64,000 nt of DNA from a virus. Its lineage: Duplodnaviria > Heunggongvirae > Uroviricota > Caudoviricetes. The first letter of the stretch is position 1, and each line of letters begins with the position of its first letter. The stretch covers positions 13,214 to 77,213 of IMG/VR virus record IMGVR_UViG_3300048998_000119. The stretch is one strand, 5' to 3'. The notes below the pieces were generated by a model that ran no database searches, was not told where the DNA came from, and was given only the letters and a program-made list of their open reading frames with translations. Shown here in pieces: positions 22,356 to 52,432 of the stretch. The position numbers and the translations under genes are program-made.

Positions 22356-22388
22356 ATAAAAAGCTCGTCTCCACCCGGAGACGGCGTG
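22356..22388 (-). terminator. putative rho-independent terminator (CGTCTCC-gggt-GGAGACG + TTTTTAT on minus strand)
   Basis: read on minus strand directly upstream of gene 21717..22340. Confidence 0.45.
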
Positions 22389-22559
22389 ATTGGGTCGTTG
22401 GAAATAAGGGTTAATAAAACGGGGTCCGGTCTGAGTGCTCGCGTCGTGGTCGCCGTTACAAAGTTCCCGTTTGGGCCAACGCGAGTGCGTCGGGCGGGGC
22501 GGCGGAGGACGCGAGTGACCGGGGTCCGGGCGGCACACCGGACAGCATAATCATATCAG

Positions 22560-28825: not shown

Positions 28826-28872
28826 ATTCACGGTGATCTCCAATTTTTGAGGAGGCTCATCGGCCTCCTCAG
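28826..28872 (-). promoter_or_regulatory. stem-loop + A-run + RBS module, copy A
   Basis: minus: GAGGAGGCC-gatga-GCCTCCTC AAAAATTGGAGATCACC GTG. Confidence 0.4.
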
Positions 28873-28873
28873 A

Positions 28874-29065
28874 TTATCCTTGTAGTTCAAGTGGACCCAC
28901 GTATTCGTTCCACTCGGTGCTGGTCAGTTCCAGAAAGTAATTTGGATCTTTGTATTCCTCGTTGACCAACACTGTACGCGACATCACAATCGCGATTTTG
29001 GGTATCATCGTCAAATTCTCTCCGCCGATGAAATGCATCATCCTGACAGGATAATAAGACAACAT
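28874..29065 (-). CDS. hypothetical protein (~63 aa) overlapping RNR 3' end
   Basis: ATG with GGAG RBS inside the last 40 nt of the RNR gene. Confidence 0.3.
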   Translation of the reverse strand: MLSYYPVRMMHFIGGENLTMIPKIAIVMSRTVLVNEEYKDPNYFLELTSTEWNEYVGPLELQG

Positions 29066-29102: not shown

Positions 29103-31007
29103 TCACTTGATGGGGCATGCTCCACTTGCACATTCATCGTCCCCTTCGAACTCCGCCTCTGAGACGGAGGTGATAAGCCGAGTTTCTGCCACAAGTTCGT
29201 CATACTGTTCTTTCGTGATTTCCTCCAACGGTGCTTGCTTGAAGCCGTGATCGGAATGCAGCAGGAAGGAGAGTGACTTATGGCTGTGCCGGTAATACTT
29301 CTCCAAGTACTCACGGATCGCCGGAAGCTCTTCCTTCTTGTAGTAAATGGTGCATGAGACAGAATTGTCCGACCACTCAGTCTGAAGACGCTTGATCCAG
29401 TTCAACTGATCAAAGGCCGTGACGTCTGCGGCCACGGTGGTGCCTTCAGGATAAGCGAACGGGAAGGTCACGACCACAGTGTTGTAGTCGTCTGAGCCGT
29501 CGAAGTTCTGCTGATACTCGACCGGATAGCCAGCCTCACGACAGATCGCCACGAGGCGATGATCTGCGGCGATGCGAATGCGACGATACATATGACGAGC
29601 ATATGCGGGATGGACACCCGGAGTCACACCCGGCAGAAGAGACAACGTGCCGCTCGGCTTGACCGTGGTGAGCTTGATCGAGATTGGAACGCCCTTGCGC
29701 TTACTATACGTCGCGTCGTACTCACGCAGGAACAGATAGCCGTCGTTCATCCAGGACAGCTGCTCTTCGCTGCTCTGGAGAATACCCGTCAGACCAATGC
29801 CCATACGCATGTTGCGGTGGACGATTGCTTCGGTGCCGGGCTGATGGCTCTTCATCATCAACGAGTGCTTGTTGATGCGGTAACTCAGTTGCAGAATATC
29901 GAGGAACTCTTCCTCCGATGTAACATTCGGAAGGAATACCTCACTCAGACAGCAGGTTTCGAAATTCGCAAGCGACTGTTCTGCGCAAGGATTGTACCCC
30001 TCGACGTCCGGGTCTGGGTAATCAAAGTCACCCAGGCGACCGATCTGACGAGATAGACTGAGATTAATGAGTCCGTAAGGCTCGCCTTTGCCTTCGTAAC
30101 CGTCCCAGAAGTAGGGATGCAGATCGGCAATGTCGTCGCACGCGACCGAGTTGTTCGACATAGCGCGCCACTTTGGAATATTGCCCATATCCCAACGCTT
30201 CGCAAGCAGGTACTCAACGTCATCTGGATCTCCAATGGCCAACTGAGCCGACCGGCGTACGTTACCGGCCACAATGATGAAGCCGATGATGTTCATAATG
30301 TCAAGGGCGTCGATCGGACGGATCTTACGACCCGCACGCTTCATCAGAATCTCGCTGATCTGCTGAATGCCCCAACACAGTTCTTCCGGCCCGCTGGCCA
30401 CACCGCCGAAGCCGTTGATCGGCTTACCCTTGCCGCGAATTACCTGCGTGCTGTAAGTGAAACTCCCCTTGGACGATTGGTCTGAGAGGAACGCCGACTT
30501 GAGGGTTTTTCCGAGAAGCTTGACCCAACCCTCACGGCTATCCGGCACAATGAAGTCTGCGCCACCTTCGTCAGTACGAACAGGAGCTTTGAACCACGGC
30601 CGGACTTCGGGTAGTTTGTCCACATGTTTCTTCTGAATGTTATACCCAACACCACTGCCGAGAGCCAGCATATCCATGCACCAGCAAAAAGGAGTGATGG
30701 GATGGTCCACCACGGTGAATGCACAGTTCTGGAGTGAAGCCAGTCCCAGACGATCCACAGTGCCAGTGCCGAGTTGCCAAAGAAATCGGCCAGCAACAGA
30801 CATTTTGAGATCGAGCATGTAACCTCGGGCGCGGTCTTCTTCATCCTTGGTGAACCCCACATGTAGTTGTTCGTCCGCCGCCTTGAGTACGCGGTCGATC
30901 GTGTCGGGAAATTCTTCCTGACGACCGTTGTCCATCTTACGCGAATAGGTACGCTTGTACGTAAGATAGCCTACGCTAGACCACGGCGTTTGTCCATTAT
31001 TCATCAA
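29103..31007 (-). CDS. nrdJ: ribonucleotide reductase, class II (adenosylcobalamin-dependent, monomeric-type)
   Basis: active-site GYNPCAEQS, C-terminal redox pair ECASGAC, 634 aa. Confidence 0.7.
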   Translation of the reverse strand: MMNNGQTPWSSVGYLTYKRTYSRKMDNGRQEEFPDTIDRVLKAADEQLHVGFTKDEEDRARGYMLDLKMSVAGRFLWQLGTGTVDRLGLASLQNCAFTVVDHPITPFCWCMDMLALGSGVGYNIQKKHVDKLPEVRPWFKAPVRTDEGGADFIVPDSREGWVKLLGKTLKSAFLSDQSSKGSFTYSTQVIRGKGKPINGFGGVASGPEELCWGIQQISEILMKRAGRKIRPIDALDIMNIIGFIIVAGNVRRSAQLAIGDPDDVEYLLAKRWDMGNIPKWRAMSNNSVACDDIADLHPYFWDGYEGKGEPYGLINLSLSRQIGRLGDFDYPDPDVEGYNPCAEQSLANFETCCLSEVFLPNVTSEEEFLDILQLSYRINKHSLMMKSHQPGTEAIVHRNMRMGIGLTGILQSSEEQLSWMNDGYLFLREYDATYSKRKGVPISIKLTTVKPSGTLSLLPGVTPGVHPAYARHMYRRIRIAADHRLVAICREAGYPVEYQQNFDGSDDYNTVVVTFPFAYPEGTTVAADVTAFDQLNWIKRLQTEWSDNSVSCTIYYKKEELPAIREYLEKYYRHSHKSLSFLLHSDHGFKQAPLEEITKEQYDELVAETRLITSVSEAEFEGDDECASGACPIK

Positions 31008-32746
31008 TCGAACTTTCCCTTGGAGACACGCGTCTCCTCAACTTCTTCCATCTTTTCTGCCTCGAACTCTTCTTCGTCGTCCGAATAGATAGTCTCGTCG
31101 TAATTGAGACGACCTGTTTCGAACACATACGAGGCACCGGCGACTGGACCGGTTAGGCCGGTGTAGCGGCACTTGAGTACTTCCATTTCGATCTTGTTGC
31201 GGACGTTGTCTTTCTTTGCTCGCATATTACGAGCGAACGCCACAATGTCCATCGAGATCTGCTTGATCGAGCCGGAACCCTTGATGTCATCCATAGACGG
31301 CAACTTGCCTTCTTCGAATGCCTGGGAGCCGGACGAAACCTTACGCAGATGTGACACAACACCGATCCACACTTCATACCGCTTGACCAATGTCAGAAGC
31401 GCATTCATAAACTTGTCGATGGCTTCATTGCCGTCTGAGCCTTCAAAACCCTCGGAGGCGGCGATGGTGATGTGATCCAGATAGATGTGCTTGCAGCCCT
31501 TGAGACACAACCACTCCATCTTTTCAATCAGACCTGTGTCACTGACTGAACCTTGGTGATCCAACACAATGAACTGATCTGAACCGAACACCGCGTCGAA
31601 GCCCGGACGCATTTCCTCCAGCGTCATCGGCTCGTCTTGCGCGGCGGGATTCTTGTTCAACGCCATACCGGAGAACTTGCGGGCGGATTCACCCGGACCT
31701 TCCTCCAGCGCAATCCAGCCAATCTTCTGACTCGGATCTGGATTGCCGTCCTCGTCTACCAGATGATGCTCTTTGGTGAACAAGGCATCTTCACGCAGGA
31801 TGGTGCTCTTGCCCGACCCAGTGCCGGAAATGAACAGCGTGATGTCGCCGTACCGCTTACCCTTGGTCTTCTTATTGACGCCCGCGAGGCAGTCGGGGAA
31901 CAGCAGAGATTTGACCTTGCTGTCAGCTTCCATCTTTTCCCAGAGCTCGTCTCTGGACAGAAAGCCGCCCGGCGTATACGACTGAGCATCGAACATGGCG
32001 TTTATGAGCGCCGGTCCACCACTCTCCCGCAGGACGTCGTTGGCGTCCTTCTGAGGCAACTTGGTTATTTTGACTTTGTCGATGCCGACGATCTTGATCG
32101 CCTTCTCCAGGGCTGCTCTGCCGCTGGCGTCTTCATCGAAAGCCAGAACCACTTCATCGTACTGTCGTACTAACTCACGTCGTTCGAGCAAGAGTTTGAG
32201 ATTGGTGTCTGACCCAGCGGACATCACGGGATAGATCTTACCGTACTTGTCCATCATCGCTTCGGCGAACGCCATTGCGTCTTCTTCGCCTGTGGTCAGA
32301 ATAAGTCTCCGGTTACCACCTACGAAAGGAAGTCCTTCTCCGAACAGACCTTCAAGCTTACCCAGTCTGTACCAGCCGTCTTTGGGATAACGGCGAGCGT
32401 TGTATCCACCTGGATACGGATAGAACCTAGTATCCACCTTGCCGTTGCTGTTGAAGCTATTCTTCACCTTGAAGAACTCGTAGACCGCTGTGCTGATTTG
32501 CCTATCGCGGTCGCCCTTTGCAAGCTTCAACCCACTCACTTCTTCCATCGTCAACTGACGACTTGTACTCTTCAACAACGGAGATTTCTTCTCGGACGGG
32601 GGCCTCTCGATGTCGACCACGTCGCCCTCTTTTAACTGCTTCGCCGAGAATGACTTCTCACAGACGTAGCATTTTGCTCCACCATCCTCATAAATTTGCA
32701 TGCCATCGGATGATGGGCAGTATACACACGGTTGGTTATGCTTTAC
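31004..32746 (-). CDS. DNA primase/helicase (T7 gp4-like)
   Basis: Zn finger CVYC...CYVC, TOPRIM VVLAFDEDASGRAA, Walker A GTGSGKST; start trimmed to TTG after GGAG, overlapping GIY-YIG stop. Confidence 0.8.
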   Translation of the reverse strand, partial: VKHNQPCVYCPSSDGMQIYEDGGAKCYVCEKSFSAKQLKEGDVVDIERPPSEKKSPLLKSTSRQLTMEEVSGLKLAKGDRDRQISTAVYEFFKVKNSFNSNGKVDTRFYPYPGGYNARRYPKDGWYRLGKLEGLFGEGLPFVGGNRRLILTTGEEDAMAFAEAMMDKYGKIYPVMSAGSDTNLKLLLERRELVRQYDEVVLAFDEDASGRAALEKAIKIVGIDKVKITKLPQKDANDVLRESGGPALINAMFDAQSYTPGGFLSRDELWEKMEADSKVKSLLFPDCLAGVNKKTKGKRYGDITLFISGTGSGKSTILREDALFTKEHHLVDEDGNPDPSQKIGWIALEEGPGESARKFSGMALNKNPAAQDEPMTLEEMRPGFDAVFGSDQFIVLDHQGSVSDTGLIEKMEWLCLKGCKHIYLDHITIAASEGFEGSDGNEAIDKFMNALLTLVKRYEVWIGVVSHLRKVSSGSQAFEEGKLPSMDDIKGSGSIKQISMDIVAFARNMRAKKDNVRNKIEMEVLKCRYTGLTGPVAGASYVFETGRLNYDETIYSDDEEEFEAEKMEEVEETRVSKGKFD

Positions 32747-32750
32747 TATC

Positions 32751-33227
32751 TTACCCAACGTCACTCCAATCACTGACCGCAGCCAGACGCTGTTTATGCC
32801 TGAAGGTGACGTTCTCACGAACGGTCCATCCCACCTTCTCAATCCGAGTATTATACCAATTAGGTGTGGTGGGCGCTTCCACCATACACAGAGACCATGT
32901 TTCGGCGAAGGACAGACCAGATTTGGTCGAGTACTCTTCGATGCAGTAGAATTCAAACTCGTCTATGGGCCGTTGCGCAAACAACTGAGACATGGTCGTG
33001 GATGAAGACTTATACTTTCGCCAAGCGGTTTCTTCGCCGCCTTTGGTTACTCCGAGGACTCTGTATTGCTTCTTGCCGATGTAGCCGCGCTTGAGGACCA
33101 AGTCACGAATTGCATAGACGAAGCCAACCTTGCCGTCCATTCCCATTTTCTCCGGGAACACCCAGTGTCCGTTTGGATTGGACGCTTTGATGGACGGCGC
33201 TTTTGGTATATTACCCAAACTCACCAT
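32751..33227 (-). CDS. GIY-YIG homing endonuclease
   Basis: KVGFVYAIRDLVLKRGYIGKK. Confidence 0.65.
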   Translation of the reverse strand: MVSLGNIPKAPSIKASNPNGHWVFPEKMGMDGKVGFVYAIRDLVLKRGYIGKKQYRVLGVTKGGEETAWRKYKSSSTTMSQLFAQRPIDEFEFYCIEEYSTKSGLSFAETWSLCMVEAPTTPNWYNTRIEKVGWTVRENVTFRHKQRLAAVSDWSDVG

Positions 33228-34114
33228 TATAAAATTTCCTTAACCACATTCCAGTTGTCTGGTGTGAAACGATCCCCTGGATGGGTCAGTAGATGAATCA
33301 ATTGTCCGTTCATAAGCAAGTTATTATACCAGTCACCGTCGTACGCTTTGATGTAGCTGTCGACGACAACTGTCTGCATTTCATCGAGCGTCGTGCAATC
33401 CTTCAACAGCTTGGTGGCTGTCTTCTCACCGATCCCGATTACACCGGGAATGTTGTCGGTCGGATCGCCTTTGATAAGTTGCTCATGGTAATGACGACGG
33501 GCTTCAAGTTCATCGACCGTAATGATCTTTTCGTTGCCTTTGTGCATACGATAGTGCTGCCCAGGTATGCAGAGTAGATCTTTGTCGACTGAGCAAATGA
33601 TGTAGTCCTGCCCAATCTTTCGAGCCTCCCCGGCCCAAATACAGAGCAGATCGTCAGCTTCCATTCCGTCAGCATTGATTGCATAGCCCTCCGCGACAGC
33701 CAATCGGCGAAGGACGGGAACTGTGGTGTTCTTGAAGGCATTGTTACGGTGCCTGTGCTGTTTATATTCTGGGTATACATCATCGCGGAAGTTTTTTCCT
33801 CCGCCCATAGCGATGAGCTTGTCGTCGCAATAGACTTTCTCGTGGATTGAATCCAGCAAATAACGTAGATTACTCCACGCCGTTTCCAGATAAGCTTGTT
33901 CTTCTTCAGGAGTGTACTCTTGTGGTCGACGTTTACCGTCTTCGCCTAGCAGCACCACCTGCGTCGTTTCATCGTCATAGACCCTACGCGGAGGACAAGA
34001 ATGATAACAGATGACGTCGCCATCTATCAGAGCAATCTTGCCCTGCACGTTCGGGATGAAGCTCAATGAGGGTTCTTCCTCCTTTTTCTTGAGCTTCAAC
34101 TGGCCGATCCCCAT
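33227..34114 (-). CDS. 5'-3' exonuclease / flap endonuclease
   Basis: H3TH motif GDPTDNIPGVIGIGEKTATKLL; acidic clusters DGMEADD, SVDKD. Confidence 0.75.
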   Translation of the reverse strand: MGIGQLKLKKKEEEPSLSFIPNVQGKIALIDGDVICYHSCPPRRVYDDETTQVVLLGEDGKRRPQEYTPEEEQAYLETAWSNLRYLLDSIHEKVYCDDKLIAMGGGKNFRDDVYPEYKQHRHRNNAFKNTTVPVLRRLAVAEGYAINADGMEADDLLCIWAGEARKIGQDYIICSVDKDLLCIPGQHYRMHKGNEKIITVDELEARRHYHEQLIKGDPTDNIPGVIGIGEKTATKLLKDCTTLDEMQTVVVDSYIKAYDGDWYNNLLMNGQLIHLLTHPGDRFTPDNWNVVKEIL

Positions 34115-34467: not shown

Positions 34468-36495
34468 TCAGTGAATTTCCCTCCAGTTCTTTCCGGTCTT
34501 GCCGCTGCCGTCCATGAAGTCGATTCCGAAAATCTTCGGACCTTCCTGGAAAGCCTTGACGCCCAACTCAGCCGCTCTGGCCGCGTGCTCATCCGGCACG
34601 GAGCAGTCGCCTTCGTCGTGCATAAAGATATGTGGCTTGAACGGAATACCTTCTTCGCGCATCCAGCGCATCCACAGCATAATAGCCGCAGAGCAAGTGG
34701 CCTTTTCAAACGCTTGCAGTAGATACACAAGTAGCTTGTGCGTCGAATCAACATACACAGGTACTCCACCGATTCCGGTGATGTAGCCACCCTTCTTGAT
34801 CGAACCGCTAAATCCAATCTTCTTGGTCTCTGCGAACTCACGATTGAGCGCCTTCTCCAGCTTGACTAGATTAGGAACTTTCTTCGTGAAACCCTTCTTA
34901 AGTTGACCGCCGAGCGTGGCGTCCGGTGAACCAAAGCAGTAGAGCCAGACTTTAGCGCCACCTGCTCCGAACAAGAACGCGTAATACACACGTTTAGATC
35001 GAGCACGTCTTTGCTTCCACATAACTTTTTCAGCCGCTTTGCGACCAGACGTGTAGTACTGCTCATAACTAATCCCCTTTCTGTCGAGGAATCGTTTGAG
35101 CGCACCTTTGGCTTTGGTGCTCTTGGCGAGGAACGCACCCCAGTCCACACCCATTTCTTTGAGCACTGCGTCCAGCGCCTTAGCGTTGTACATGTGGATG
35201 TCGCCCTTGGTGATGACGTCGATGTACTCAGCACTCTTCAGATAGAAGGCAAGTCCTCGTCCTTGGTTGCCCGCAGAGTCGCAACCCACCAGCGTCCATC
35301 CAGGCTCTGAAATGAAAAGGGATCGCATTTCTGGTCCCCATTTTGATTCCATTGCGGGGACGTTAACGATAATGCTGTGGCGCGCACGTAGACTCGGGGT
35401 GCCGATAGTGACGCAGTCACCGTGGAGTCGTCCTTCGGCGTCTGTGTTTTCAATCCACCCTTTGAGGATGGATAGTCGTGAAGATGCAACAGAGAACTCA
35501 CGATAGAGCTTACCGTCGCCGCCAAGAAACTCCAGACTCTCTTCGGTAATCTTAGGGCTTGTTTGGACCTTACGTTTTGTGGCTTCGTCGAATTTGCTGT
35601 TGTACTCAAGAGGTATCCATCCGTTTCTGAACAGAAATGTCTTCACATCATCTGTCGAACCAAGCTCAAGCGGCACCACCTTCATACGGCAGTACTCGCC
35701 GACGACCATGACTTCCTCGCCCGGATAACCGGACCAGGGATCCACATCGAAATAGGTGGCGATGTGTGAGTGATACGCACCTTCTTTGGTCCACCTAGTG
35801 GATTTGACTTCGACCTCTTTGCCCTGAGTGTTGGGCACCTTGTCGAGCGCCACCGTCTTCATTCCCAACTTGGGTTCCAACAGTGCTCTGTTCTTCTCGA
35901 CAAGTTCTTCTAGTTCAATCGCCAGCTTCGAACCGGTTTCGACGTCGAAGGGCCAACCTCCCATGTGAGCCATACCGACCCATTCGGACGCGGCGTGTTC
36001 GCACAGAAGATAATCAGCCAACTGAGGGGCTCGCTTGGACTTCGACTTGTACTCATCCAAGAGCATCTTGTACATGACGATGTTACCTTTGACGTCGCTC
36101 AAACAACGTGTCCTCATTTCTTGTGAGAACTGGCTCCAATCGTTATGCTCTTGCTTGTCGTAACCTGTGTGCTTGCCCCATTCGTCTTGGCTGTGTTTGA
36201 AATTGCCGAATCTGTTATAGTCCAACGCGCGAGACATAATGAGAGTATCTTGGAGTAACGCCTCTTCGGGAGGCACCCAGCCAGTCAACTTCTTGAATAA
36301 GGGCAGATCGTGTTCGATTATGTTCTGCCCGATGATGTGGGTGGCGGTTTCCAAACGTTCCTGCCACCCAAGATCACCTTCAAGATATTCCCATACCTCG
36401 CCCGTCTCGACATCTTCAATCACGACGATCCAGAGCCGAGTTGCCTCAAGCGCCAGACCGTCTGATTCAGAGTCGAATACGAGTTTTACAGCCAT
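34468..36495 (-). CDS. DNA polymerase, family A (T7 gp5-like) with 3'-5' exonuclease domain
   Basis: exo I FDSESDGL, motif B RRARSKRVYYAFLFGAG, motif C HDEGD. Confidence 0.8.
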   Translation of the reverse strand: MAVKLVFDSESDGLALEATRLWIVVIEDVETGEVWEYLEGDLGWQERLETATHIIGQNIIEHDLPLFKKLTGWVPPEEALLQDTLIMSRALDYNRFGNFKHSQDEWGKHTGYDKQEHNDWSQFSQEMRTRCLSDVKGNIVMYKMLLDEYKSKSKRAPQLADYLLCEHAASEWVGMAHMGGWPFDVETGSKLAIELEELVEKNRALLEPKLGMKTVALDKVPNTQGKEVEVKSTRWTKEGAYHSHIATYFDVDPWSGYPGEEVMVVGEYCRMKVVPLELGSTDDVKTFLFRNGWIPLEYNSKFDEATKRKVQTSPKITEESLEFLGGDGKLYREFSVASSRLSILKGWIENTDAEGRLHGDCVTIGTPSLRARHSIIVNVPAMESKWGPEMRSLFISEPGWTLVGCDSAGNQGRGLAFYLKSAEYIDVITKGDIHMYNAKALDAVLKEMGVDWGAFLAKSTKAKGALKRFLDRKGISYEQYYTSGRKAAEKVMWKQRRARSKRVYYAFLFGAGGAKVWLYCFGSPDATLGGQLKKGFTKKVPNLVKLEKALNREFAETKKIGFSGSIKKGGYITGIGGVPVYVDSTHKLLVYLLQAFEKATCSAAIMLWMRWMREEGIPFKPHIFMHDEGDCSVPDEHAARAAELGVKAFQEGPKIFGIDFMDGSGKTGKNWREIH

Positions 36496-37239: not shown

Positions 37240-37289
37240 AGTCTAATTCCAAATTATTGGAGGGTCGCCGAAGCAACCCTCCTTTCCCG

Positions 37290-37862
37290 TCAGTCAAACT
37301 TGTCTTTCTTCACGGCGATCTTCGGCTTCGCAACCGGCACCTCGTCGTCAGCGTCGTCGGTGGATGTCTGGACTTCCGTCTCATCGTCTTCGTCGACGAC
37401 TTCCATTTCTGTTTCCTCGAAGTCATCGTCATGCGGCTTCGGAGTGTACTTGACGAGCCTCGTCAGCTTAATGCCCTGCAGGACATTCGCCACGCCCTTG
37501 CCGCCGACTTCCTTCGTGTACTCGTACTGATACACACGAACGTCGCCGATGGACTTGTTGCCCACGATCGCCGGATCGCAGTCTTCCAGGTTGCCCTTCT
37601 TCACTTCCACAGGATCCGACTCTTCGCCGCTCTTCTTGTAGATGCGCTTCTTGAGCGTGGTCTTCCAGTATGGCTTCTCGCCATCTTCCTCTGGGACGAC
37701 CGCCTTCATCGTCAGACCCTGAGCTTCCCATTCCTTCCGCTGAGCCGAGGAGTAGGTGCGGATCTGCACTTCCCAAGTTGGGTTTTCACGGTTGAACTTC
37801 TTGTTGGGACGGTTGGGGACACAACGAACAAACCAAAGTTCTGCGTTCTTGATCAAAGCCAT
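37290..37862 (-). CDS. putative ssDNA-binding protein (acidic C-terminal region)
   Basis: position in replication block; HDDDFEETEMEVVDEDDETEVQTSTDDADDE. Confidence 0.4.
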   Translation of the reverse strand: MALIKNAELWFVRCVPNRPNKKFNRENPTWEVQIRTYSSAQRKEWEAQGLTMKAVVPEEDGEKPYWKTTLKKRIYKKSGEESDPVEVKKGNLEDCDPAIVGNKSIGDVRVYQYEYTKEVGGKGVANVLQGIKLTRLVKYTPKPHDDDFEETEMEVVDEDDETEVQTSTDDADDEVPVAKPKIAVKKDKFD

Positions 37863-37941
37863 GTTATTCTCACTTGAAACCACATACAGACTTCTGTACG
37901 CGTAGACGGGATAATTAAACGGGTTCCCGTAACCCAAAGCA

Positions 37942-38304: not shown

Positions 38305-40596
38305 CTAGACAAAGCAATATTCTGAATCCAGAACAGCCCTGATGTCCAACGTGCCGTAAACTATTTCCGACGCGTCACCCTGGATGTCCTTCATCAGATT
38401 TTGAAGTGGATCCGTCTGATACAGTTCCACAAACGTTTCTCGCACAATCCTGAACAAGTCAGGCATGTCGGCCAACAGACAACCGAAACTGTCGTGAATG
38501 GTCGTGACTGCAAACGGAGCCTTGTCCACAGTCATCGCGAGGTGAGCGGCGTCCAGAGAGTGAATACAGTTTGGACTTGCACCCGAAGCCTGCTTACCCT
38601 TTGAATGCTCAGTGTCTTCGATGAACGAAATGTTCAGCTGCAGCGTATTCTGATAGTAGCCGCTGAGCTTTCTCTCACCCAACGGAGGACCGTACTGGAT
38701 CCACCGCTTTTTGACTTTACCTTGGGTGTAGTGCTGGACGACCGGGAAGTTTGTTACGGGAACAGTCCAGCTCAAGAACCGCCCCTCCTCCTCAGCCTTA
38801 CGTCCGGCTTTCTCGAAGATCGACAGTAGCTGCATAGGCTTGGTGAGTGACAACTGAGCTGCCTCAAAGATGAGACGACCCATGTACGCACCCCACTTAT
38901 GTTCCATATACAGCAATAGTTCGATGCCGTGCTTCTTGGCGTCGTCTATCACCTGCTGTCCGAGTCCGTACGCGGTGCCGCCATACGGCAGTGTCATCAC
39001 ACCACGTTTCATCACCTTACGCCTGTCCTTGGCGCTGGTGAGTCTAGACCAGAAGACAGTAGAGGCGTCGTTGTTCAACTCCACATTGTCTTCTTTATAC
39101 GCTTTGATCTGTTCAACCAATTCCGCCCTACGGTCGCTGCTTGGTTCAGCCGCCGTGATTTGTTTCTTCAGTTCAATCAGATTGTCGATGAAGCGATTAA
39201 TCTCGTTCAGTCGCTCCTTGCTGAAGTCCGTCAGTCGGTCGACGATGATTCCCCAGACATAATCCGCCACAAAGCGATAGAGATCGCCCGGAAGCTCAAG
39301 CGGAACCAGATTCACGTGTGGCGCCGTGGTCTCGTCTCTGACCAACGCAGTCAGATGCTGTGAACCATTGTTAGAGCCGTCGATGAAACATTCCAGCGAA
39401 GATTCATAATCCGTTGGATCGCCGTGCTCAAGCGCTTTCCTCAACTCCAAACAAGCCGCCAAGAACTGCCACGGCTTATCTGCGTCCATCCACCCTTGAT
39501 TTACTTTAGGGGATTCGGCGTAAGATAAAATGATTTCAATGTTGTCTCGTGTCCAGGCTTCTCTGGCGTCGAGCGGGATTTTATCTGTCTTAAGACCATC
39601 GTCTCTGCCGGAGTTTCCGGCCCACGTAGAAGCGATGCTAATAAGTAGCCATCGGAATCCGGCCTCTCCGATAGACTTTGAATCGCTCCGGAGTAGGAGT
39701 CCGCGAGCGACGTCAGTGCCTTGTTCATGGAGATACGCTGTTGTGGGGTATTTGCGACCTCTAAAGTCATAATAATATAGATGATAAAACTCCTTGTCCA
39801 AGAAGCGTTTCGCCATACCGCTGATGGCTCGGGCTTCACGAAGTTTTGTTTGACGAGCCTGGGGGTTGCGTTGTTCCCAGATGTCGCTGAAGGCGTTTGT
39901 CTTGTTTCTCAACGCCCACAGCTGAAGTTCGTAAACCTCTTTGTTCACACGCCAACCGACTCGCTGCGCTTTGTTGATGCAGTTAAACAGAATCGGATGG
40001 GTGTCGGGCTGAACTGCGGCGAAGACTTCCTTGTTGCCGGTCTTGATCATGTAGTTGCCGGTCTCGTGCCTGGAGGCGATCCAAGGCGCGTACGCTGTTT
40101 CAGAAGGAAGCTTTTCTATGCGTTCATTAGGGATACTTTCCCAGAGAGCGATGATGCCCTCTTCGTTGTTGATCTGAATCATATATGCGTTGTGGTTCTT
40201 GTTACCTTGACCCAGCAACACCGTTAACAACTGCAGTTGTTCAAAGCTGAAGACGAAGAACGCGCCCACCTTAGCCGCCAAGGAAGAGTCGCGTTTGATC
40301 TTGTTTTTGTTCAGAATGTTGTGACCGATGGCGGCGATCACTTCTGTTAGATACACAGTCTTGTTCACACCCTTCTTCATACGGGTGTACAAGTACAAAG
40401 TAGTTATGGCTGCGTCGATACAACCCTCCAGGTCCACATCGCGCAGGAATATAAGAGGACTCTGCGGTGCGATCTCTCGCATAATGCGGTCATAGAGAAG
40501 TTGTTTCAGTTCTGATCTCATCCAAATAATATCCATGACAGAAGATCTAGACCGAAGTATAAGACTAGGAGTACGGCGACGACATACGAAGTGCAA
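38305..40596 (-). CDS. single-subunit DNA-dependent RNA polymerase (T7-like)
   Basis: motif A FIDGSNNGSQHLTAL, motif B RRKVMKRGVMTLPYGGTAYGLGQQV, motif C IHDSFGC; true start may be ATG at ~40536. Confidence 0.8.
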   Translation of the reverse strand: MHFVCRRRTPSLILRSRSSVMDIIWMRSELKQLLYDRIMREIAPQSPLIFLRDVDLEGCIDAAITTLYLYTRMKKGVNKTVYLTEVIAAIGHNILNKNKIKRDSSLAAKVGAFFVFSFEQLQLLTVLLGQGNKNHNAYMIQINNEEGIIALWESIPNERIEKLPSETAYAPWIASRHETGNYMIKTGNKEVFAAVQPDTHPILFNCINKAQRVGWRVNKEVYELQLWALRNKTNAFSDIWEQRNPQARQTKLREARAISGMAKRFLDKEFYHLYYYDFRGRKYPTTAYLHEQGTDVARGLLLRSDSKSIGEAGFRWLLISIASTWAGNSGRDDGLKTDKIPLDAREAWTRDNIEIILSYAESPKVNQGWMDADKPWQFLAACLELRKALEHGDPTDYESSLECFIDGSNNGSQHLTALVRDETTAPHVNLVPLELPGDLYRFVADYVWGIIVDRLTDFSKERLNEINRFIDNLIELKKQITAAEPSSDRRAELVEQIKAYKEDNVELNNDASTVFWSRLTSAKDRRKVMKRGVMTLPYGGTAYGLGQQVIDDAKKHGIELLLYMEHKWGAYMGRLIFEAAQLSLTKPMQLLSIFEKAGRKAEEEGRFLSWTVPVTNFPVVQHYTQGKVKKRWIQYGPPLGERKLSGYYQNTLQLNISFIEDTEHSKGKQASGASPNCIHSLDAAHLAMTVDKAPFAVTTIHDSFGCLLADMPDLFRIVRETFVELYQTDPLQNLMKDIQGDASEIVYGTLDIRAVLDSEYCFV

Positions 40597-40652: not shown

Positions 40653-40949
40653 TTATCCTATCTTATTGAGCTCACTCCAGAGCTTTTCCAATTTTGCCTG
40701 ATTCAGATCCCTCTGATCGGGCGACACTCCGGCGATGTTCTCGTCCAGAATGTCATTCACTTCTTTTTGTTTTCTGCTGATTACTTGCTGATCTTTTTTC
40801 GCGGTCCTGACCTGGGCGAGTCCGTCGGCGATGTCCAAGAAGTCTTTAAAGGGGAGCATACCTCGTAACAGAGCACTTATAAAACCGGTCAAGGAATTCT
40901 TGCGCTGCTTTTTCCGGGGACCAGAGGGCGAAGGGAATGTCGATGTCAT
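40653..40949 (-). CDS. hypothetical protein (98 aa)
   Basis: ORF track. Confidence 0.35.
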   Translation of the reverse strand: MTSTFPSPSGPRKKQRKNSLTGFISALLRGMLPFKDFLDIADGLAQVRTAKKDQQVISRKQKEVNDILDENIAGVSPDQRDLNQAKLEKLWSELNKIG

Positions 40950-41379
40950 AGACTCTCTCGATGTCGGGGTAAAGGAACGTCTCCTCCTGATGGAACAGAA
41001 GGTTGTCGACCAGCTTAAACGTCATTTCGTCCGGTTCTTCGAACGCGAAACGATACTCCATATCTCGCATGATACGATGCTCAGTTGCCTTAAAGGAATC
41101 AGCGTCCCTTTTAAGAGGCGTGATGAGATCACCCATAACAAACTCAGGAGCATCGTGCAGGAGAGCACCTTTACGATTACGAGGATACAAGTCATGAGCA
41201 TGACAGCAGTGCTCCGCCACAGAGTAATGATGGACGACGTGGTCGCCGAAACGACACTTCTTGCCGAGCATTTCCGCGACGAATTCAATGTCGTAGATCG
41301 CAGTTTCAGGCTTTGCGAAGTCGAAGATGTGATTGTTCATCATTCGTAGACCGTTGCTGAACTTGACGCTTTCTTGCAC
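40846..41379 (-). CDS. HD-domain phosphohydrolase (YfbR-like 5'-deoxynucleotidase)
   Basis: YSVAEHCCHAHDL ... ALLHDAPEFVMGDLITP; GTG start after GGAGG. Confidence 0.65.
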   Translation of the reverse strand: MQESVKFSNGLRMMNNHIFDFAKPETAIYDIEFVAEMLGKKCRFGDHVVHHYSVAEHCCHAHDLYPRNRKGALLHDAPEFVMGDLITPLKRDADSFKATEHRIMRDMEYRFAFEEPDEMTFKLVDNLLFHQEETFLYPDIERVYDIDIPFALWSPEKAAQEFLDRFYKCSVTRYAPL

Positions 41380-41391: not shown

Positions 41392-41470
41392 AAAAAAAAA
41401 AAAAAATAGTGAGTTATGGTTCAGAAGAAGGACACCCCAGAGAAACGCCCGAAGGCGTCTCCCTGAGGTG
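41392..41470 (-). promoter_or_regulatory. 14-bp hairpin (with G-U pairs) followed 30 nt later by T16 immediately upstream of the HD-gene RBS
   Basis: minus strand: CTCAGGGAGACGCC-ttcg-GGCGTTTCTCTGGG ... T16 CCGGAGGTCCACGTG. Confidence 0.35.
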
Positions 41471-42600: not shown

Positions 42601-42632
42601 CTCATATAAGATACCTCTTTTTCCGCGTTTTC
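42601..42632 (-). promoter_or_regulatory. conserved 32-nt element copy 1 (minus-strand sense GAAAACGCGGAAAAAGAGGTATCTTATATGAG)
   Basis: near-identical copies at 44270-44300 and 50721-50752. Confidence 0.6.
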
Positions 42633-42859: not shown

Positions 42860-43474
42860 TCATCGAGCTTTTTCATTATATAGTTTCCTTCTAACCGCTA
42901 GTAATTGACGTTTTAATTCTATGAATGCAGTAGGCACGTCCTTTTTACTGTTTAAATTTAGATCGGTACAAATCCTACGTTCAACATAGGTATCGGCAAG
43001 AAATAGACGTTCTAAAGAGGAACGATATTCTGTACGGGCAGCGGTGTCCCTCCCTCTCTCGTTACGTCTCGCACAACCACGTCGAGCACGTCGTAATCTG
43101 ACAATGTCAGCCGTGTACCGTCCGTAGCAGCTAATACACAAAGTTGTGTAGTTATATCGTGGTACTGTTGCCCACGTGCAATGACAGTGATCGCAACGAG
43201 GTCTAGGCGGAGTTTCATGGACGGGTGGTTTATAGTCTACACGCTTGGCTCGACATTTACGCACCACTTCTTTTCTCACTTCGGGTCCGCAATCTCGACA
43301 ATAAAATACATGCGAAGGCCCTTCAGCAATTGATATATTGCAACGCTTGCATTTACGAGCTAATCGTCTCTTTTCACTCCTCTCATTTTGAAAACATGTT
43401 CTACAACGACTTGTGCAAGTCTTATAGAACATGGTGACATCTTCTGTGCGACAGAAGACACAGCTGTACTTCAC
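42860..43474 (-). CDS. Cys-rich multi-zinc-ribbon protein (204 aa)
   Basis: >20 Cys in CxxC pairs. Confidence 0.45.
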   Translation of the reverse strand: MKYSCVFCRTEDVTMFYKTCTSRCRTCFQNERSEKRRLARKCKRCNISIAEGPSHVFYCRDCGPEVRKEVVRKCRAKRVDYKPPVHETPPRPRCDHCHCTWATVPRYNYTTLCISCYGRYTADIVRLRRARRGCARRNERGRDTAARTEYRSSLERLFLADTYVERRICTDLNLNSKKDVPTAFIELKRQLLAVRRKLYNEKAR

Positions 43475-44256
43475 TTAATATTGACGAGCGACCCGCCGGT
43501 GCCCTGGACGAACGTGCAGTTCTTGTTTCCGCAGACGGATTTCAGCGTGTCCAACGTGCGAAGCTGAACGAACTGATCTGCATTCAGACCCAGACCATTC
43601 TGGTAGGCTCGATCCGCTTCGGCGCGCTTGGCTTCTGCGTTTTTGCGCTGCTCTTCAGCCAACACAGTCTTCTGCATCGTCAGCACACGCTGTTCCTGAG
43701 AAGCCGTGGCGATGCGCTGATCCTTCACAGAATCAGGCGGATTTGCCCGACCAATAGTGAACCGAACGAGTCGCACAGGGAACTTGTTCCGGGCGAAGTA
43801 CTGTTCCAGCCGTTCCGAAACTTCGGCATCGATCGAGGCTGCGGCGGTAGTGCTGATGGCCGTCTCGTTCAGACCATGCTTCTTGACGGCGTCGCGGATG
43901 TACGACAGCAGTTCGGTGCTGATGTTGTTGTCGTACCAGTTCGAGCCATAACGCTTGACGAGCGCGACCGAGTCGGTGACCTGCGTGACGACAGAAGCGT
44001 CGAAGTCCAGAGGTACACCGTCGCTGGTCATCAGATCGTTTAGCTCAAGCTTGTGCTGCTCCGGCTGCATGTTGACGGTGATCGCACTAGTCGACCAAGC
44101 GACTAGTTCGGTGCCCTTGACGGGAGTGTCGAACACACCGCCCGAGCCGAAGAACCAGGGCTTTGCGTTGAGAACTTTTTCCTCGTTGGGCTCAGTACTC
44201 ACGTAGGAGCAAGCCGAAGTGGCGAACAGAAGCGAGAGAAGAAACATATTTTTCAT
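43471..44256 (-). CDS. SPFH (band-7/HflKC-like) lipoprotein
   Basis: lipobox LLFATSAC; RLVRFTIGRANPPDSV and Ala/Glu/Gln-rich AEEQRKNAEAKRAEADRA tail typical of SPFH C-termini. Confidence 0.5.
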   Translation of the reverse strand: MKNMFLLSLLFATSACSYVSTEPNEEKVLNAKPWFFGSGGVFDTPVKGTELVAWSTSAITVNMQPEQHKLELNDLMTSDGVPLDFDASVVTQVTDSVALVKRYGSNWYDNNISTELLSYIRDAVKKHGLNETAISTTAAASIDAEVSERLEQYFARNKFPVRLVRFTIGRANPPDSVKDQRIATASQEQRVLTMQKTVLAEEQRKNAEAKRAEADRAYQNGLGLNADQFVQLRTLDTLKSVCGNKNCTFVQGTGGSLVNIK

Positions 44257-44269: not shown

Positions 44270-44300
44270 CCATATAAGATACCATTATTTCCGCGTTATC
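44270..44300 (-). promoter_or_regulatory. conserved 32-nt element copy 2
   Basis: GATAACGCGGAAATAATGGTATCTTATATGGAAAG immediately 5' of the SPFH gene. Confidence 0.6.
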
Positions 44301-45373: not shown

Positions 45374-45661
45374 CTAATCCTCTGAAAAGAGTTCCTGCAG
45401 GGTCCGTTCTGGATCCCAGCCAACTTTACGCTTTACTTCTTTCCCGTTGTGCATCAGCACAAGAGTGGGTACACCTCGCACGTCAAAGCGATGTGCCATC
45501 AGTGGTTGCTCGTCGACGTCTGACACCAACAACTCGATGTCATTTCGCTTACGAGCTTCCTCCAACGCGGGTTTCGCGGGCAACGCCCAAGACGCCCAGA
45601 ACAGCAACAACTTGTCGCCGGTGTCCAGGAGATCTTCGTTTGCTTGAGTGAGTTCGATCAT
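45374..45661 (-). CDS. thioredoxin-fold protein lacking the CxxC active site
   Basis: FWASWALPAKP aligns to Trx FWAEWCGPCK; RGVPTLVLMHNGKEVKRKVG aligns to Trx [20 protein letters not shown]. Confidence 0.55.
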   Translation of the reverse strand: MIELTQANEDLLDTGDKLLLFWASWALPAKPALEEARKRNDIELLVSDVDEQPLMAHRFDVRGVPTLVLMHNGKEVKRKVGWDPERTLQELFSED

Positions 45662-48164: not shown

Positions 48165-48742
48165 ATGTTCAACTCCTTGAGCTGCAGGAGACGCTTTACG
48201 ATTTGATCTTCCGTGAAACGATCGTACAGACCGTCCAGAGAAGGAGTCTCACGTCCGTCGCCCGGTTGAAAGGCGCGGGTGCTCGCCCAGGTCGGCAGCT
48301 TGTCGGCGAATTGCGTCAACAGAAGAACGGTGTCCGTGTCGACGACGATGCTGTGGATCTCCGAGGCGTGCTGATGGTACGACTCACCTTCCTTGTGCAG
48401 CATGCTGGACTCGATCGACAGCAGTGTTTCGCGCTTCCAGACGAAACCGGAGCCGCCGTTGAGCGGTGTCTCGTAGTCGAATTCTTGGAAACGCGTGTGG
48501 CGAGGATCACCCCAGCCACTTTTGTATTTGTTGTTGCGAACTTCTCCGGCCAATACCGTGGTGGAAAAATCATAACGATGATCGTGCGGCACGACGATTT
48601 CGGCGTCGGTCTTCAAGTTGTCGAAGAAGTAAGCTTTGATCGTCAGCGTATCCGAACGATGCAGACAGATGTAGTCGAGTCCTTTCGAGTGGAAGTTGCG
48701 GAAGCTGTTGGCGGCGATGGTTTCGACGTCGTCGTATCTCAT
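48161..48742 (-). CDS. putative cupin-fold / 2OG-Fe(II)-oxygenase-like protein
   Basis: VPHDHRYDF (HxD) and HQHASEIHSIV. Confidence 0.35.
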   Translation of the reverse strand: MRYDDVETIAANSFRNFHSKGLDYICLHRSDTLTIKAYFFDNLKTDAEIVVPHDHRYDFSTTVLAGEVRNNKYKSGWGDPRHTRFQEFDYETPLNGGSGFVWKRETLLSIESSMLHKEGESYHQHASEIHSIVVDTDTVLLLTQFADKLPTWASTRAFQPGDGRETPSLDGLYDRFTEDQIVKRLLQLKELNI

Positions 48743-49227
48743 TTGGCGTATCCTTTATAGTGATTGAGAAAGTTTCCGTGAAAACAATTTTCGCTGAACC
48801 CTGACGGAACGCCGTGGTCGAGAAAAAAGTAAATACGTTCGGCCGCACCCTTGGCGGTGTTGTCGAAATGGGACCACATACCGCCGAACATCCACGCGAA
48901 CTCAGATGAAATCGCATCGCTGCCTTCGGAAAAGACTGGACAGAAGTTACGTTCGCAGTAAGCACTCCAGTCTATAGTGCTGCCGGGAAAATCACTGTCG
49001 ACCGCCAGAAAACCAGCGCTGGGACCGTGACCAACTGCGCAGGCGACGGCACCACAGTTGTGCACACCACCGTTCTCGCGAGCGTATTTATTTCTGATCT
49101 CAAACTCTCGTCCCCAGAGACCATCCTCGACCACGCTGAAGTAAGAACTCATATTGAAGCTGTCGTAGTTCTCGGGAAGCTCAAAGAGATAGTCGGCGAG
49201 CGTCTTGAGGTTGCCGCGATTAACCAT
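48739..49227 (-). CDS. tandem paralog 1 of unrecognised family (CGAVACAVGHGPSAGF motif)
   Basis: start trimmed to MVNRGNLKTLADYL; shares three blocks with paralogs 2 and 3. Confidence 0.6.
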   Translation of the reverse strand: MVNRGNLKTLADYLFELPENYDSFNMSSYFSVVEDGLWGREFEIRNKYARENGGVHNCGAVACAVGHGPSAGFLAVDSDFPGSTIDWSAYCERNFCPVFSEGSDAISSEFAWMFGGMWSHFDNTAKGAAERIYFFLDHGVPSGFSENCFHGNFLNHYKGYAK

Positions 49228-49675
49228 TGTAGATCTCCACGAATGCACGATAGGAATAACCCTTGAAGACTTCCGGCACACCGTGCTCGAGATAGTAGTT
49301 GATGCGCTTGGCGGCACCATGAGGTGTGTTGTCGCAGAAAGACCAGAATGAACTGAACATCCACTCGAACTCGCGCGTGTTGTTGCCATCTTCGTCGCGC
49401 ACATCGCAGAAGAGACGATGAGTGTACACATCCCAGTGGACTTCCACGTCGTTGAGTTCATGTTCCTGAAACAAAAAACCCGCCGAAGGACCATGACCCA
49501 CAGCACAGGCCGCAGTTCCACAACGCGAGACTCCACCGTTGTTCAGTGCGTAGTCTCGTTCGTCGGCGGGAGTGTGGGCGTAGAAGAAACCCGCCATGTC
49601 GAATTCGGCGTAGTCTTCCGGCAGCGTGAGCAGGTAGTCGGCGAGCTTCTTGAGGTTGTCGCGGCGGTTCATGCG
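49220..49675 (-). CDS. tandem paralog 2 of unrecognised family
   Basis: start trimmed to MNRRDNLKKLADYL; CGTAACAVGHGPSAGF; HGAAKRINYYLEHGVP. Confidence 0.6.
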   Translation of the reverse strand, partial: RMNRRDNLKKLADYLLTLPEDYAEFDMAGFFYAHTPADERDYALNNGGVSRCGTAACAVGHGPSAGFLFQEHELNDVEVHWDVYTHRLFCDVRDEDGNNTREFEWMFSSFWSFCDNTPHGAAKRINYYLEHGVPEVFKGYSYRAFVEIYNG

Positions 49676-50151
49676 ATGTACTCCTGATAGATGGGGACAT
49701 AATAACGAAAGCTTTTGCAAACGTCGAAACTCTCCGGCACGCCATTTCTCAGATAGTAGTAGATGCGTGCGGCGGCTCCGTGAGGTGTGTTGTCGTAAGG
49801 CGCCCACCTACCGCCAAACATCCAGCTGAAAGCATTGGCAGCTTCTGGGCTGAAGCGACGACCGACGATGAAGTTGGCGTAGGTATATTCCGGCCACATC
49901 ACTCCACCGCCTTCTGAAATGAACTCTTCGGTAAAGAGAATACCGGCGGTAGGTCCGTGACCAACCGCGCAAGCCACGGCTCCGCACGCGCCCACACCGC
50001 CGTTGTGTAGAGCATACTCACGTTCCACTGAGGTGTGAACACCCTCCATGAAAGATATCATGTTGAAATGTTCGTAGTCCAGCGGAAGCGCCGACAGATA
50101 ATCGGCGAGCTTCTTGAGATTTTCACGCTTGTCCATCTTGGAGCCTTTCAT
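49669..50151 (-). CDS. tandem paralog 3 of unrecognised family
   Basis: MDKRENLKKLADYL; CGAVACAVGHGPTAGI; HGAAARIYYYLRNGVP. Confidence 0.6.
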   Translation of the reverse strand: MKGSKMDKRENLKKLADYLSALPLDYEHFNMISFMEGVHTSVEREYALHNGGVGACGAVACAVGHGPTAGILFTEEFISEGGGVMWPEYTYANFIVGRRFSPEAANAFSWMFGGRWAPYDNTPHGAAARIYYYLRNGVPESFDVCKSFRYYVPIYQEYIA

Positions 50152-50395: not shown

Positions 50396-50428
50396 TTTTT
50401 AGGAGGAAGCTTTTTACGGCTTCCTCCA
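50388..50428 (-). promoter_or_regulatory. stem-loop + A-run + RBS module, copy B
   Basis: minus: GGAGGAAGC-cgtaaaaa-GCTTCCTCC TAAAAATTGGAAATTCAG ATG. Confidence 0.4.
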
Positions 50429-50587
50429 GGATTAATTAGGCGTACGCGAGGACAAGCAACCGAAGCTGATGTTCGGTGTAGTCCAGGATGCGACGATGAA
50501 AGTTTTCGGCGGCGGCGCGATAACCACGACGCTGCATTCCATCGACGATCTGCTGATAAGCTTGTTCGAGTTCCATACCAAATCCTT

Positions 50588-50720: not shown

Positions 50721-50752
50721 CTCATATAAGATACCTTATTTTCCGCGTTTTC
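50721..50752 (-). promoter_or_regulatory. conserved 32-nt element copy 3
   Basis: GAAAACGCGGAAAATAAGGTATCTTATATGAGAG; first intergenic region after the lysis cassette. Confidence 0.6.
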
Positions 50753-52370: not shown

Positions 52371-52432
52371 AAGGATAACTCACTATGATGATTACTCCAA
52401 GGAAGGAATCTAAGGGAGCGCCCATCGTTAAT

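Follow-up and report, generated by a model that had tools for sequence, protein, structure and literature searches.

The Naomviridae (roseophages DSS3_VP1/PM1, Noahvirus) are siphoviruses of 70–75 kb (Rihtman et al. 2021, PMC8323127). DSS3_VP1 (VP1), the type species, has a 75-kb genome in which every gene is on the same strand, is a siphovirus by electron microscopy, and carries deoxyuridine (dU) in place of deoxythymidine (dT) in its DNA (PMC8323127). Its record lists an RNA polymerase (RNAP), a 'T7-like phage DNA polymerase', a primase/helicase, and a tape measure. Among phage records, the closest structural module to that described here belongs to EBPR siphovirus 1 (ESV1, JF412302), whose record is partial and metagenomic and lacks the early, RNAP, and replisome part. 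The window, i.e., the whole 64-kb stretch presented above, comes from the ~77-kb genome of an uncultured phage. It encodes a free T7-type single-subunit RNAP and the beginning of a second gene in which a MuF-type head protein is fused to a further RNAP domain. These two polymerases and the two classes of promoter-like elements found with them are described below. The polymerase features are as follows.

38305–40521, minus strand: free T7-type single-subunit RNAP, 738 aa, PF00940.
40846–41379, minus strand: HD-domain deoxynucleoside-5'-monophosphate (dNMP) phosphatase-like protein, phrog_318 E 6e-34, PF12917 weak.
1046–1, minus strand: first 348 codons of the 1525-aa MuF–RNAP fusion, with the MuF domain at residues 132–237.
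Beyond window coordinate 1, on locus L074:10401–14978: RNAP domain of the fusion, about residues 770–1480.

The free RNAP matches Pfam PF00940 with an E value of 2.4e-72 and T7 RNAP in the PDB, over its full length, with an E value of 2.7e-50. Its translation holds FIDGSNNGSQH, VMTLPYGG, and TIHDSFG, which supply the palm motifs A (D...GxQH), B (K...YG), and C (HD) of single-subunit RNAPs. The start is ATG 40521 (MRSELKQ...), as in the relatives and in the source-contig gene call. An alternative start at TTG 40596 is very unlikely and represents an artefact of open reading frame (ORF) extension, since the relatives and the source-contig gene call begin at 40521. The HD dNMP-phosphatase-like gene lies directly upstream of the RNAP gene and is the first gene after the T15 element described below.

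The source contig is the metagenomic Logan contig SRR27584636_198222 (77,118 bp), which encodes an RNAP, P0001, that is 100% identical to the free RNAP. Three loci of this contig differ from the window by 3 mismatches over about 47 kb and fill in the 13 kb absent from the window, including most of the fusion gene, which lies between the portal and scaffold genes. The contig gene call of the 1525-aa MuF protein bore a 'faint' RNA_pol flag. Pfam scanning of the fusion identified PF04233 Phage_Mu_F at residues 132–237 (39.6 bits, cut-off 29.6; E 1e-9) and PF00940 RNA_pol at residues 980–1086 (35.7 bits, cut-off 22; E 5.8e-9). Both the PF04233 score and the gene order (portal ... MuF, scaffold, capsid candidate) place the N-terminal part in the MuF / SPP1 gp7 family. 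The C-terminal domain has the catalytic motifs of a single-subunit RNAP and, in a structural model, the T7 RNAP fold. A BLASTP comparison of the fusion with the free RNAP gave a colinear alignment, with the following correspondences.

Upstream conserved box: FIDHRARVY in the fusion, YYDFRGRKY in the free RNAP.
Motif A: EQDASSSGAQ in the fusion, IDGSNNGSQH in the free RNAP.
Motif B: KAQNMVTFYGAG in the fusion, read from the sequence outside the BLASTP local alignment and supported by the homolog alignment.
Unnamed aligned pair: NGNHSNDA in the fusion, NCIHSLDA in the free RNAP.
Motif C: TIHDAFF in the fusion, TIHDSFG in the free RNAP.

In 16 fusion sequences, including VP1 gp108, the residues D846, R848, R850, Y852, D994 (motif A), K1060 and Y1068 (motif B), H1398, and H1423-D1424 (motif C) are invariant; thus, the domain appears to be under selection as an enzyme. 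Profile methods agree with this assignment. With hhalign, the fusion domain aligned with the free-RNAP family over 510 columns (probability 82%, E 1e-5), and a profile spanning both clades matched T7 RNAP (E 2.4e-10) and mitochondrial RNAP (E 2e-4) in the PDB. The profile was needed, as a single-sequence PDB search with the fused domain gave marginal matches only (E ~0.1). An AlphaFold2 (AF2) model was obtained for the C-terminal 785 residues of the homolog P0121 (pLDDT 73, pTM 0.69), whose domain is 83% identical to that of this phage, so that the model is the homolog's and not that of this phage's own protein. It was built from a 12-sequence alignment spanning both clades, which replaced an unusable run from 6 close sequences (pLDDT 42). 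In a Foldseek search of the PDB with this model, the top 50 matches were all T7 or mitochondrial RNAPs, with a best E value of 4e-14, about 780 aligned columns, and a TM-score of ~0.5. On the evidence of sequence and model, the C-terminal ~750 residues of the fusion form a second T7-like RNAP, which is very divergent and keeps all catalytic motifs. The first-pass annotation had missed this polymerase; most of its gene lies off-window.

The fusion is conserved across the whole lineage, i.e., in the clade of the window phage, in VP1, and in ESV1. Among the matches listed, all 120 homologs of the window clade are fusions, 116 of them with both precomputed Pfam matches. The VP1-type homologs among the matches listed have the MuF domain in 120 of 120 cases and RNA_pol as well in 95; most of the others are shorter, truncated proteins. 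In a 50%-identity library, full-length fusions measure 1400–2070 aa, and the polymerase domain is always C-terminal. The ESV1 gene is split by an HNH gene (L069, 29081–29761). In seven homologs (P0123, P0139, P0146, P0182, P0198, P0219, and P0228), insertions of 100–250 aa are located just N-terminal of motif A; they differ between lineages, and one is ParB-like by eye. The source labels for the fusion are 'SPP1 gp7 family head morphogenesis', 'minor head protein-like', and 'minor capsid protein', and none of them says polymerase. The text of the Naomviridae paper does not mention RNA polymerase and does not report virion proteomics (PMC8323127). A survey of packaged 'polyvalent' proteins found N4-like virion RNAPs confined to N4-like phages (PMC5512222). 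No MuF–RNAP fusion, and no virion T7-like RNAP outside N4-like phages, was found in the literature, with coverage short of all journals. The second polymerase in the fusion, previously unannotated, is new.

Two classes of promoter-like elements accompany these genes.

50723–50750, minus strand: class I element, copy 1, AAACGCGGAAAATAAGGTATCTTATATG.
44271–44298, minus strand: class I element, copy 2.
42603–42630, minus strand: class I element, copy 3.
37908–37923, minus strand: class II motif, CCCGTTTAATTATCCC, between the RNAP block and the SSB-like gene.
22408–22423, minus strand: class II motif, CCCGTTTTATTAACCC, upstream of the 273-aa gene.
21717–22538, minus strand: conserved 273-aa gene.
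11300–11315, minus strand: class II motif, CCCGTTGAATTAGCCC, heading the packaging and structural block.
52420–52447, minus strand: degenerate class II-like motif, CCCGTTGAATTAAC..., upstream of the lysis genes, score 14.4.

Class I is the 32-nt element that the first-pass annotation had proposed as a candidate for phage-specific promoters expected throughout the genome. Its consensus is CGGAAA-N4-5-GGTATCTTATATGA, and the window holds three copies against an expectation of 0, each located 20–35 nt upstream of a ribosome-binding site and start codon. The core GTATCTTATATG is kept in the relatives, which hold 2–3 copies of the form CGG(G)AAA-N4-5-RGTATCTTATATGA, and GTATCTTATAT is the most widely shared 11-mer across 17 related sequences. 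The 12-mer core occurs in 29 exact copies, every one of them on the coding strand and 0.5–10 kb upstream of the RNAP gene; the other strand has none. At the head of the VP1 early region stands a class I-like pair (…GGCATCTATAATGA). Conservation in the relatives therefore supports the element well as a phage promoter, although it is restricted to the early block rather than present throughout.

Class II has the consensus A-N-CCCGTT-NN-ATTA-N-CCC (sequence form, CCCGTTAAATTAACCC), which we take to resemble T3-type promoters (AATTAACCC). Three copies were observed in the window, compared with 0.05 expected, and another lies off-window, before the scaffold and capsid genes. The first copy comes right after the free RNAP gene, a layout like that of T7. 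In the relatives, 27 of 27 class II matches are on the coding strand, with one copy ahead of the early block and one 0.7–2.2 kb after the RNAP stop. ESV1 carries copies before gp9 (the homolog of the 273-aa gene), at 14130 before the small terminase gene, before lysozyme (a clear copy), and before the genes after its MuF–RNAP gene, the last being the scaffold/capsid position in the window phage. VP1 has a related motif, TAGGGTGCGTTAAAGAGGGG (…GCGTTAAAG…), in at least 13 copies that occur in the middle and late regions only; it precedes gp072, the homolog of the SSB-like gene. No conserved hairpin was found at class I or class II elements. Collectively, these comparisons point to two conserved, strand-specific classes of putative promoters at conserved positions, one early and the other middle/late, and this arrangement is new.

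Strong hairpins with T13–T15 runs separating the gene blocks are likewise new. They are the following.

41392–41470, minus strand: 17-bp UUCG hairpin (41433–41470), spacer, and T15 run (41392–41406); dG −38 kcal/mol, z −5.6.
11338–11408, minus strand: 21-bp UUCG hairpin (11363–11408), spacer, and T13 run (11338–11350); dG −40 kcal/mol, z −5.1.

The window has no long T runs other than T15 and T13. The hairpin/T15 element marks the end of the early block, with the HD-hydrolase and RNAP genes directly after it, and the RNAP gene is preceded by the same hairpin and a T-rich tract ending in T6–T13 in 10 of the 14 relatives examined. The hairpin/T13 element closes the middle block, ahead of the class II motif at the front of the packaging genes; a hairpin with T19/T13 occupies the same place in ESV1. 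Other GC-rich hairpins, with A-rich rather than T-rich tails, occur at gene ends on the minus strand (50396–50435, ~28850–28880, ~16670–16710, and 37240–37289) and could be RNA-processing sites or pause/termination sites of a phage RNAP.

MuF proteins, such as Mu F and SPP1 gp7, are portal-associated head components. Enzymatic domains fused to MuF are considered to be delivered into the host (PMC5512222). We regard it as likely that this phage is a siphovirus with two single-subunit RNAPs, an injected MuF–RNAP acting on the early promoters and the free RNAP acting on the second class. MuF proteins would be packaged via the portal and would exit the capsid with the DNA, which would make the MuF–RNAP a virion polymerase. 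After injection, it would start at the three class I promoters (50.7, 44.3, and 42.6 kb) and transcribe the early block, partly passing the hairpin/T15 element, so that the HD-hydrolase and RNAP genes would also be transcribed. The free RNAP would then read class II, i.e., the SSB/replisome, 22-kb, terminase/portal, and scaffold/capsid blocks, and, from the degenerate motif, the lysis genes; the hairpin/T13 element would end the middle unit. Such a program would need little or no host RNAP, as in N4 or P23-45. Packaging, activity, polymerase–promoter pairing, and read-through are what we infer here. We also lean slightly toward the broader view that all Naomviridae-like siphoviruses, including DSS3_VP1/PM1, package and inject a MuF-fused T7-family RNAP that starts at class I.

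The proposed program resembles that of N4 (Schitoviridae) in that a capsid-carried T7-family polymerase would transcribe the early genes from few (three) promoters, with a second phage RNAP coming next. The N4 virion RNAP is a ~3500-aa protein with a zincin peptidase module and belongs to a podovirus (PMC5512222), whereas the polymerase of the window phage is attached to a MuF domain in a siphovirus. N4 promoters require a hairpin, which is not conserved at class I elements, and the second RNAP of N4 is a two-subunit mini-enzyme, while that of the window phage is a full T7-like protein. The fusion is thus MuF plus RNAP without hairpin promoters and not the giant enzyme with a peptidase module typical of N4-like virion RNAPs. 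The Thermus phage P23-45 is also a siphovirus in which a polymerase is fused to an ejected structural protein and transcribes the gene of a second, free polymerase (PMC10770324), as is proposed for the window phage. However, the P23-45 enzymes are two-barrel RNAPs related to cellular RNAPs, and the fusion partner is the tape measure, not MuF.

Several points weigh against the reading of an injected MuF–RNAP paired with class I. The window does not include the RNAP domain of the fusion, and the AF2 model was built on a homolog 83% identical over the domain, not on the phage's own protein. Packaging, activity, and injection of the fusion are deduced from sequence, and the pairing of polymerases with motif classes from position and analogy. 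No evident promoter separates the T15 run from the HD and RNAP genes, and expression of the RNAP by read-through of hairpin/T15 is an assumption. Moreover, the class I core includes a TATAT/TATAAT-like sequence (VP1: CATCTATAATGA) and may therefore be a host sigma-70-type −10 element. If the host RNAP read the early block from such −10-like cores (TTATAT; TATAAT in VP1), the free RNAP would read the rest, as in T7, and the fused domain would have another role, such as late transcription once newly synthesized, replication priming, or promoter-independent pulling of DNA into the cell. This would follow the T7 paradigm, in which the RNAP gene is placed at the end of the host-transcribed early region, and the hairpin and T-run elements do look like intrinsic terminators obeyed by bacterial RNAP. 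However, no −35-like hexamer is seen by eye at the right spacing, and a sigma-70 scan of 38–53 kb gave no more sites than in shuffles, with none at class I. The core of at least 12 nt and the CGGAAA box are invariant across phages of 33–52% GC whose proteins are ~60% identical, an invariance far above what a sigma-70 promoter needs. The catalytic residues of the fused RNAP are also invariant, so the domain is selected as an enzyme. Transcription of the early block by the host is considered unlikely.

The relatives' class II copy just upstream of the first class I copy would fit a virion enzyme starting at class II equally well. With the pairing swapped in this way, the injected MuF–RNAP would read class II, from the copy at the head of the early block and again late, while the free RNAP would read class I as an early booster. 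Class II is indeed present upstream of the RNAP gene in 11 of 16 relative loci and, where both classes are present, precedes the first class I element by 45 nt to about 1 kb; the fusion, itself a late gene product, would also be abundant when the late genes are read. Yet in every lineage the first motif after the free RNAP gene is class II (in VP1, the related motif), as in T7 after gene 1, and class II is presumed to be T3-like. A swap would also leave the free RNAP with a minor role, and we judge it quite improbable. We give next to no credence to the idea that assembly joined a T7-like podovirus to a siphovirus in a chimera. Although the sequence derives from a metagenomic Logan contig, the same gene order is found in the sequenced isolates VP1/PM1, and the IMG/VR relatives share the RNAP neighborhood and motifs. 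Many homologs of both polymerases occur on independent 60–91 kb contigs, GC and coding strand are uniform across the window, and the coordinates of the contig imply closure on itself. The preferred reading remains that of an injected MuF–RNAP on class I and a free RNAP on class II.

The replication genes downstream of the free RNAP are also of T7 type.

37290–37862, minus strand: gp2.5-like SSB candidate (weak likeness), homolog of VP1 gp072.
34468–36495, minus strand: T7-type family A DNA polymerase, best PDB match T7 gp5, E 5e-16.
33227–34114, minus strand: 5'-3' exonuclease (FEN-type), PF02739 and PF01367.
31004–32701, minus strand: T7 gp4-type primase-helicase, 565 aa, full-length match to PDB 6n7i, E 2.5e-54.
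26682–27581, minus strand: ATP-dependent DNA ligase, PF01068.

At the nucleotide level, 20 kb of the window had no match among 50,697 phage records (megablast). At the protein level, the best matches of the free RNAP are the roseophages DSS3_PM1 and DSS3_VP1 (32% identity over 95% of the protein), followed by T7-like podoviruses (28–30%). About 15 of the approximately 104 ORFs in the window match VP1 at 25–51% identity in similar order, including the DNA polymerase (32%). The Naomviridae core genes and their synteny are present at 25–51% identity (RNAP, T7-like replisome, gp032/031, terminase, portal, MuF–RNAP, and tape measure). The window phage shares with the Naomviridae a genome size of 70–77 kb, one-strand genes, siphovirus tail genes, and the order T7-type RNAP, SSB-like gene, T7-type DNA polymerase, exonuclease, and primase-helicase. 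The gp032/gp031 pair is kept, as are the large terminase (51%), the portal (40%), the MuF–RNAP fusion (gp108, ~32%), and two promoter-like motif classes in equivalent regions. On the other hand, the distal tail genes of VP1 are located between terminase and portal, whereas those of the window phage come after the tape measure. The window encodes a class II ribonucleotide reductase, in contrast to class I in VP1; the promoter motif sequences differ, and the GC content of the window phage is 52%. VP1 reaches dU-DNA through an HD dTMP phosphatase and a dCTP deaminase. No homolog of VP1 gp070, the dCTP deaminase supplying dU, was found in the window phage, and its HD dNMP-phosphatase-like protein is not detectably related to VP1 proteins.

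The structural module is closest to that of ESV1, with identities of 53% for the large terminase, 41% for the portal, 42% for the distal tail protein, 40% for the tail-tip protein, and 56–60% for the MuF–RNAP, and with class II motifs and a hairpin/T-run at orthologous positions. The closest relatives are uncultured and comprise 16 IMG/VR contigs with RNAPs at 50–71% identity and GC contents of 33–39%, against 52% in the window phage. Furthermore, more than 120 RNAP protein clusters are found at 58–77% identity, many on 60–91 kb contigs. Judging from these identities, the phage is a new, distant member of a Naomviridae-like lineage and probably belongs to a large uncultured clade that is sister to the Naomviridae. 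Two candidates were set aside: the Endozoicomonas phage of a preprint citing Naomviridae is unrelated, and the Pseudomonas phage Zuri, which is N4-like, has only a widespread 650-aa gene in common.

Xp10 has a genome of ~44 kb with divergently transcribed halves. With Xp10 and the T7-like Autographiviridae, the window phage shares a free single-subunit RNAP and a T7-type DNA polymerase and primase-helicase, and with Xp10 also a long tail. However, RNAP identity to T7-like and Xp10-like phages is about 28–30%. T7-likes are ~40-kb podoviruses, and Autographiviridae have a short tail with internal core proteins and no tape measure at ~40 kb, whereas the window phage has a tape measure and a 77-kb genome; Xp10-like phages are set apart by the one-strand genes and the 77-kb size. 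The first-pass annotation had reported a T7-type RNAP with intact motifs A, B, and C and a T7-type replisome, all co-directional, in a genome of more than 64 kb unlike that of the Xp10 group. The PF00940 and T7 RNAP matches, the motifs in the translation, the T7 gp5 match of the DNA polymerase, the full-length T7 gp4 match of the primase-helicase, and the presence of every credible gene on the minus strand bear this out. Its description of the combination as an uncommon mosaic does not hold, because the same architecture has already been described in Naomviridae (PMC8323127) and is visible in ESV1. It had also allowed that the phage might prove to be a known genus once searched; the architecture is known, but the genus is not, given 25–51% identity to VP1 for ~15 of ~104 ORFs and the lack of a nucleotide match.

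The tail genes are located at the end of the window.

61184–64000, minus strand: C-terminal ~940 codons of the tape measure, cut by the window end.
60591–61184, minus strand: distal tail protein, phrog_1302 E 3e-8, 42% identical to ESV1 gp65.
56219–60004, minus strand: tail-tip, J-like protein, 1261 aa.

ORF 61184–63970 matches a tape measure family (phrog_25241, E 1e-44), and the full protein on the source contig has 2307 aa (PF20155 TMP_3, E 6e-47). The 1261-aa protein is the ortholog of the ESV1 'tail protein' (40% identity) and of VP1 gp018; it is J-like over about 50 residues only (lambda J, E 7e-4), with PF09327 below the cut-off. The earlier tape-measure assignment therefore stands for the C-terminal part present in the window, and the J-like one for those ~50 residues but not for the rest. 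Between the 399-aa capsid candidate and the tape measure there are only small genes (76–194 aa) and no sheath-sized gene; thus, the tail is predicted to be of the non-contractile long type. The earlier choice of a sipho- or myo-like tail over that of a podovirus agrees with the siphovirus-type tail genes and the tape measure. Siphovirus morphology is consistent with the 2307-aa tape measure, the distal tail protein, and the lack of a sheath-sized gene.

The remaining genes of the genome include the following.

9088–10413, minus strand: large terminase, PF03237, 51–53% identical to VP1, PM1, and ESV1.
6377–7885, minus strand: portal protein, DUF4055, 40% identity to the VP1 portal.
13 kb outside the window, in order: rest of the 1525-aa MuF protein, 151-aa protein, scaffold, 399-aa protein, eight small proteins, N-terminal part of the tape measure.

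We take the 399-aa protein to be the major capsid protein candidate because of its position after the scaffold; it had no family match in the Pfam scan. One of the eight small off-window proteins weakly resembles the lambda tail chaperone gpT. The minus strand carries every credible gene of the window, and GC is even along it at 50–55% (52% overall). Neither tRNA genes nor Rfam families were found in the window, and a Pfam scan of twenty smaller early and middle ORFs returned almost nothing. From its coordinates alone, the contig would have a terminal overlap of ~40 nt, implying a 77,078-bp circular assembly. The contig ends fall at window positions 11406–11446, just upstream of hairpin/T13, and two of the three mismatches between window and contig are located there, at 11434 and 11446.

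In the same region, four palindromic boxes AACCT-N1-2-AGGTT (11168–11273) are located between a class II motif and the HNH and small terminase genes. Six such boxes were observed in the window, compared with 0.08 expected, and this cluster could be an operator array or a packaging-recognition site. The HNH gene (10781–11143, minus strand) precedes the small terminase gene, and a GIY-YIG SegE-like homing endonuclease gene (32751–33227, minus strand) is found between those of the exonuclease and the primase-helicase; the large terminase gene of VP1 is interrupted by an intron. The minus-strand gene pair at 14204–16156 (650 aa, phrog_1735, E 4e-179) and 13108–13503 (131 aa, phrog_2018) is common to VP1 gp032/031, the N4-like Pseudomonas phage Zuri, and ViI-like Ackermannviridae at ~39–40% identity. 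The early region contains three tandem paralogous ORFs (48739–50151, minus strand) of ~155-aa units with a ~465-nt period and 65–79% nucleotide identity in blocks, without a Pfam match. An 879-aa tail-fibre-like protein (52869–55508, minus strand) has a GH5 'cellulase' domain, and a second GH5 protein, of 410 aa (1590–2825, minus strand), is encoded after an 866-aa glycine-rich protein in the interval from portal to MuF; both GH5 proteins are probably polysaccharide depolymerases. The accessory genes, all on the minus strand, encode radical-SAM (25005–25997), YpsA/SLOG-like (19185–19685), DUF4326 (17126–17566), SPFH/Band 7 (43471–44256), and thioredoxin (45374–45661) proteins.

The original observation alone matters little, as it concerns a distant new member of a described architecture. 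What extends it is that the whole lineage bears a second RNA polymerase inside a protein labelled 'head morphogenesis' or 'minor capsid'. Since cultured members of the lineage exist, the idea is directly testable in the DSS3 phages. If true, the fusion would add a further independent kind of virion RNAP to those of phiKZ/AR9, P23-45, and N4-like and crAss-like phages. Among T7-family virion RNAPs, it would be the first outside N4-like podoviruses, and it would also be the first virion RNAP to use the MuF 'hitch-hiking' route. Two new promoter/polymerase pairs may also become available for biotechnology. The lineage has been reported as abundant in seawater and under-detected by metagenomics (PMC12669031). 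If the fusion is a virion enzyme, it would bear on how expression starts in phages whose relatives have dU DNA, and an abundant marine and environmental lineage would have a wholly phage-encoded transcription program independent of the host RNAP.

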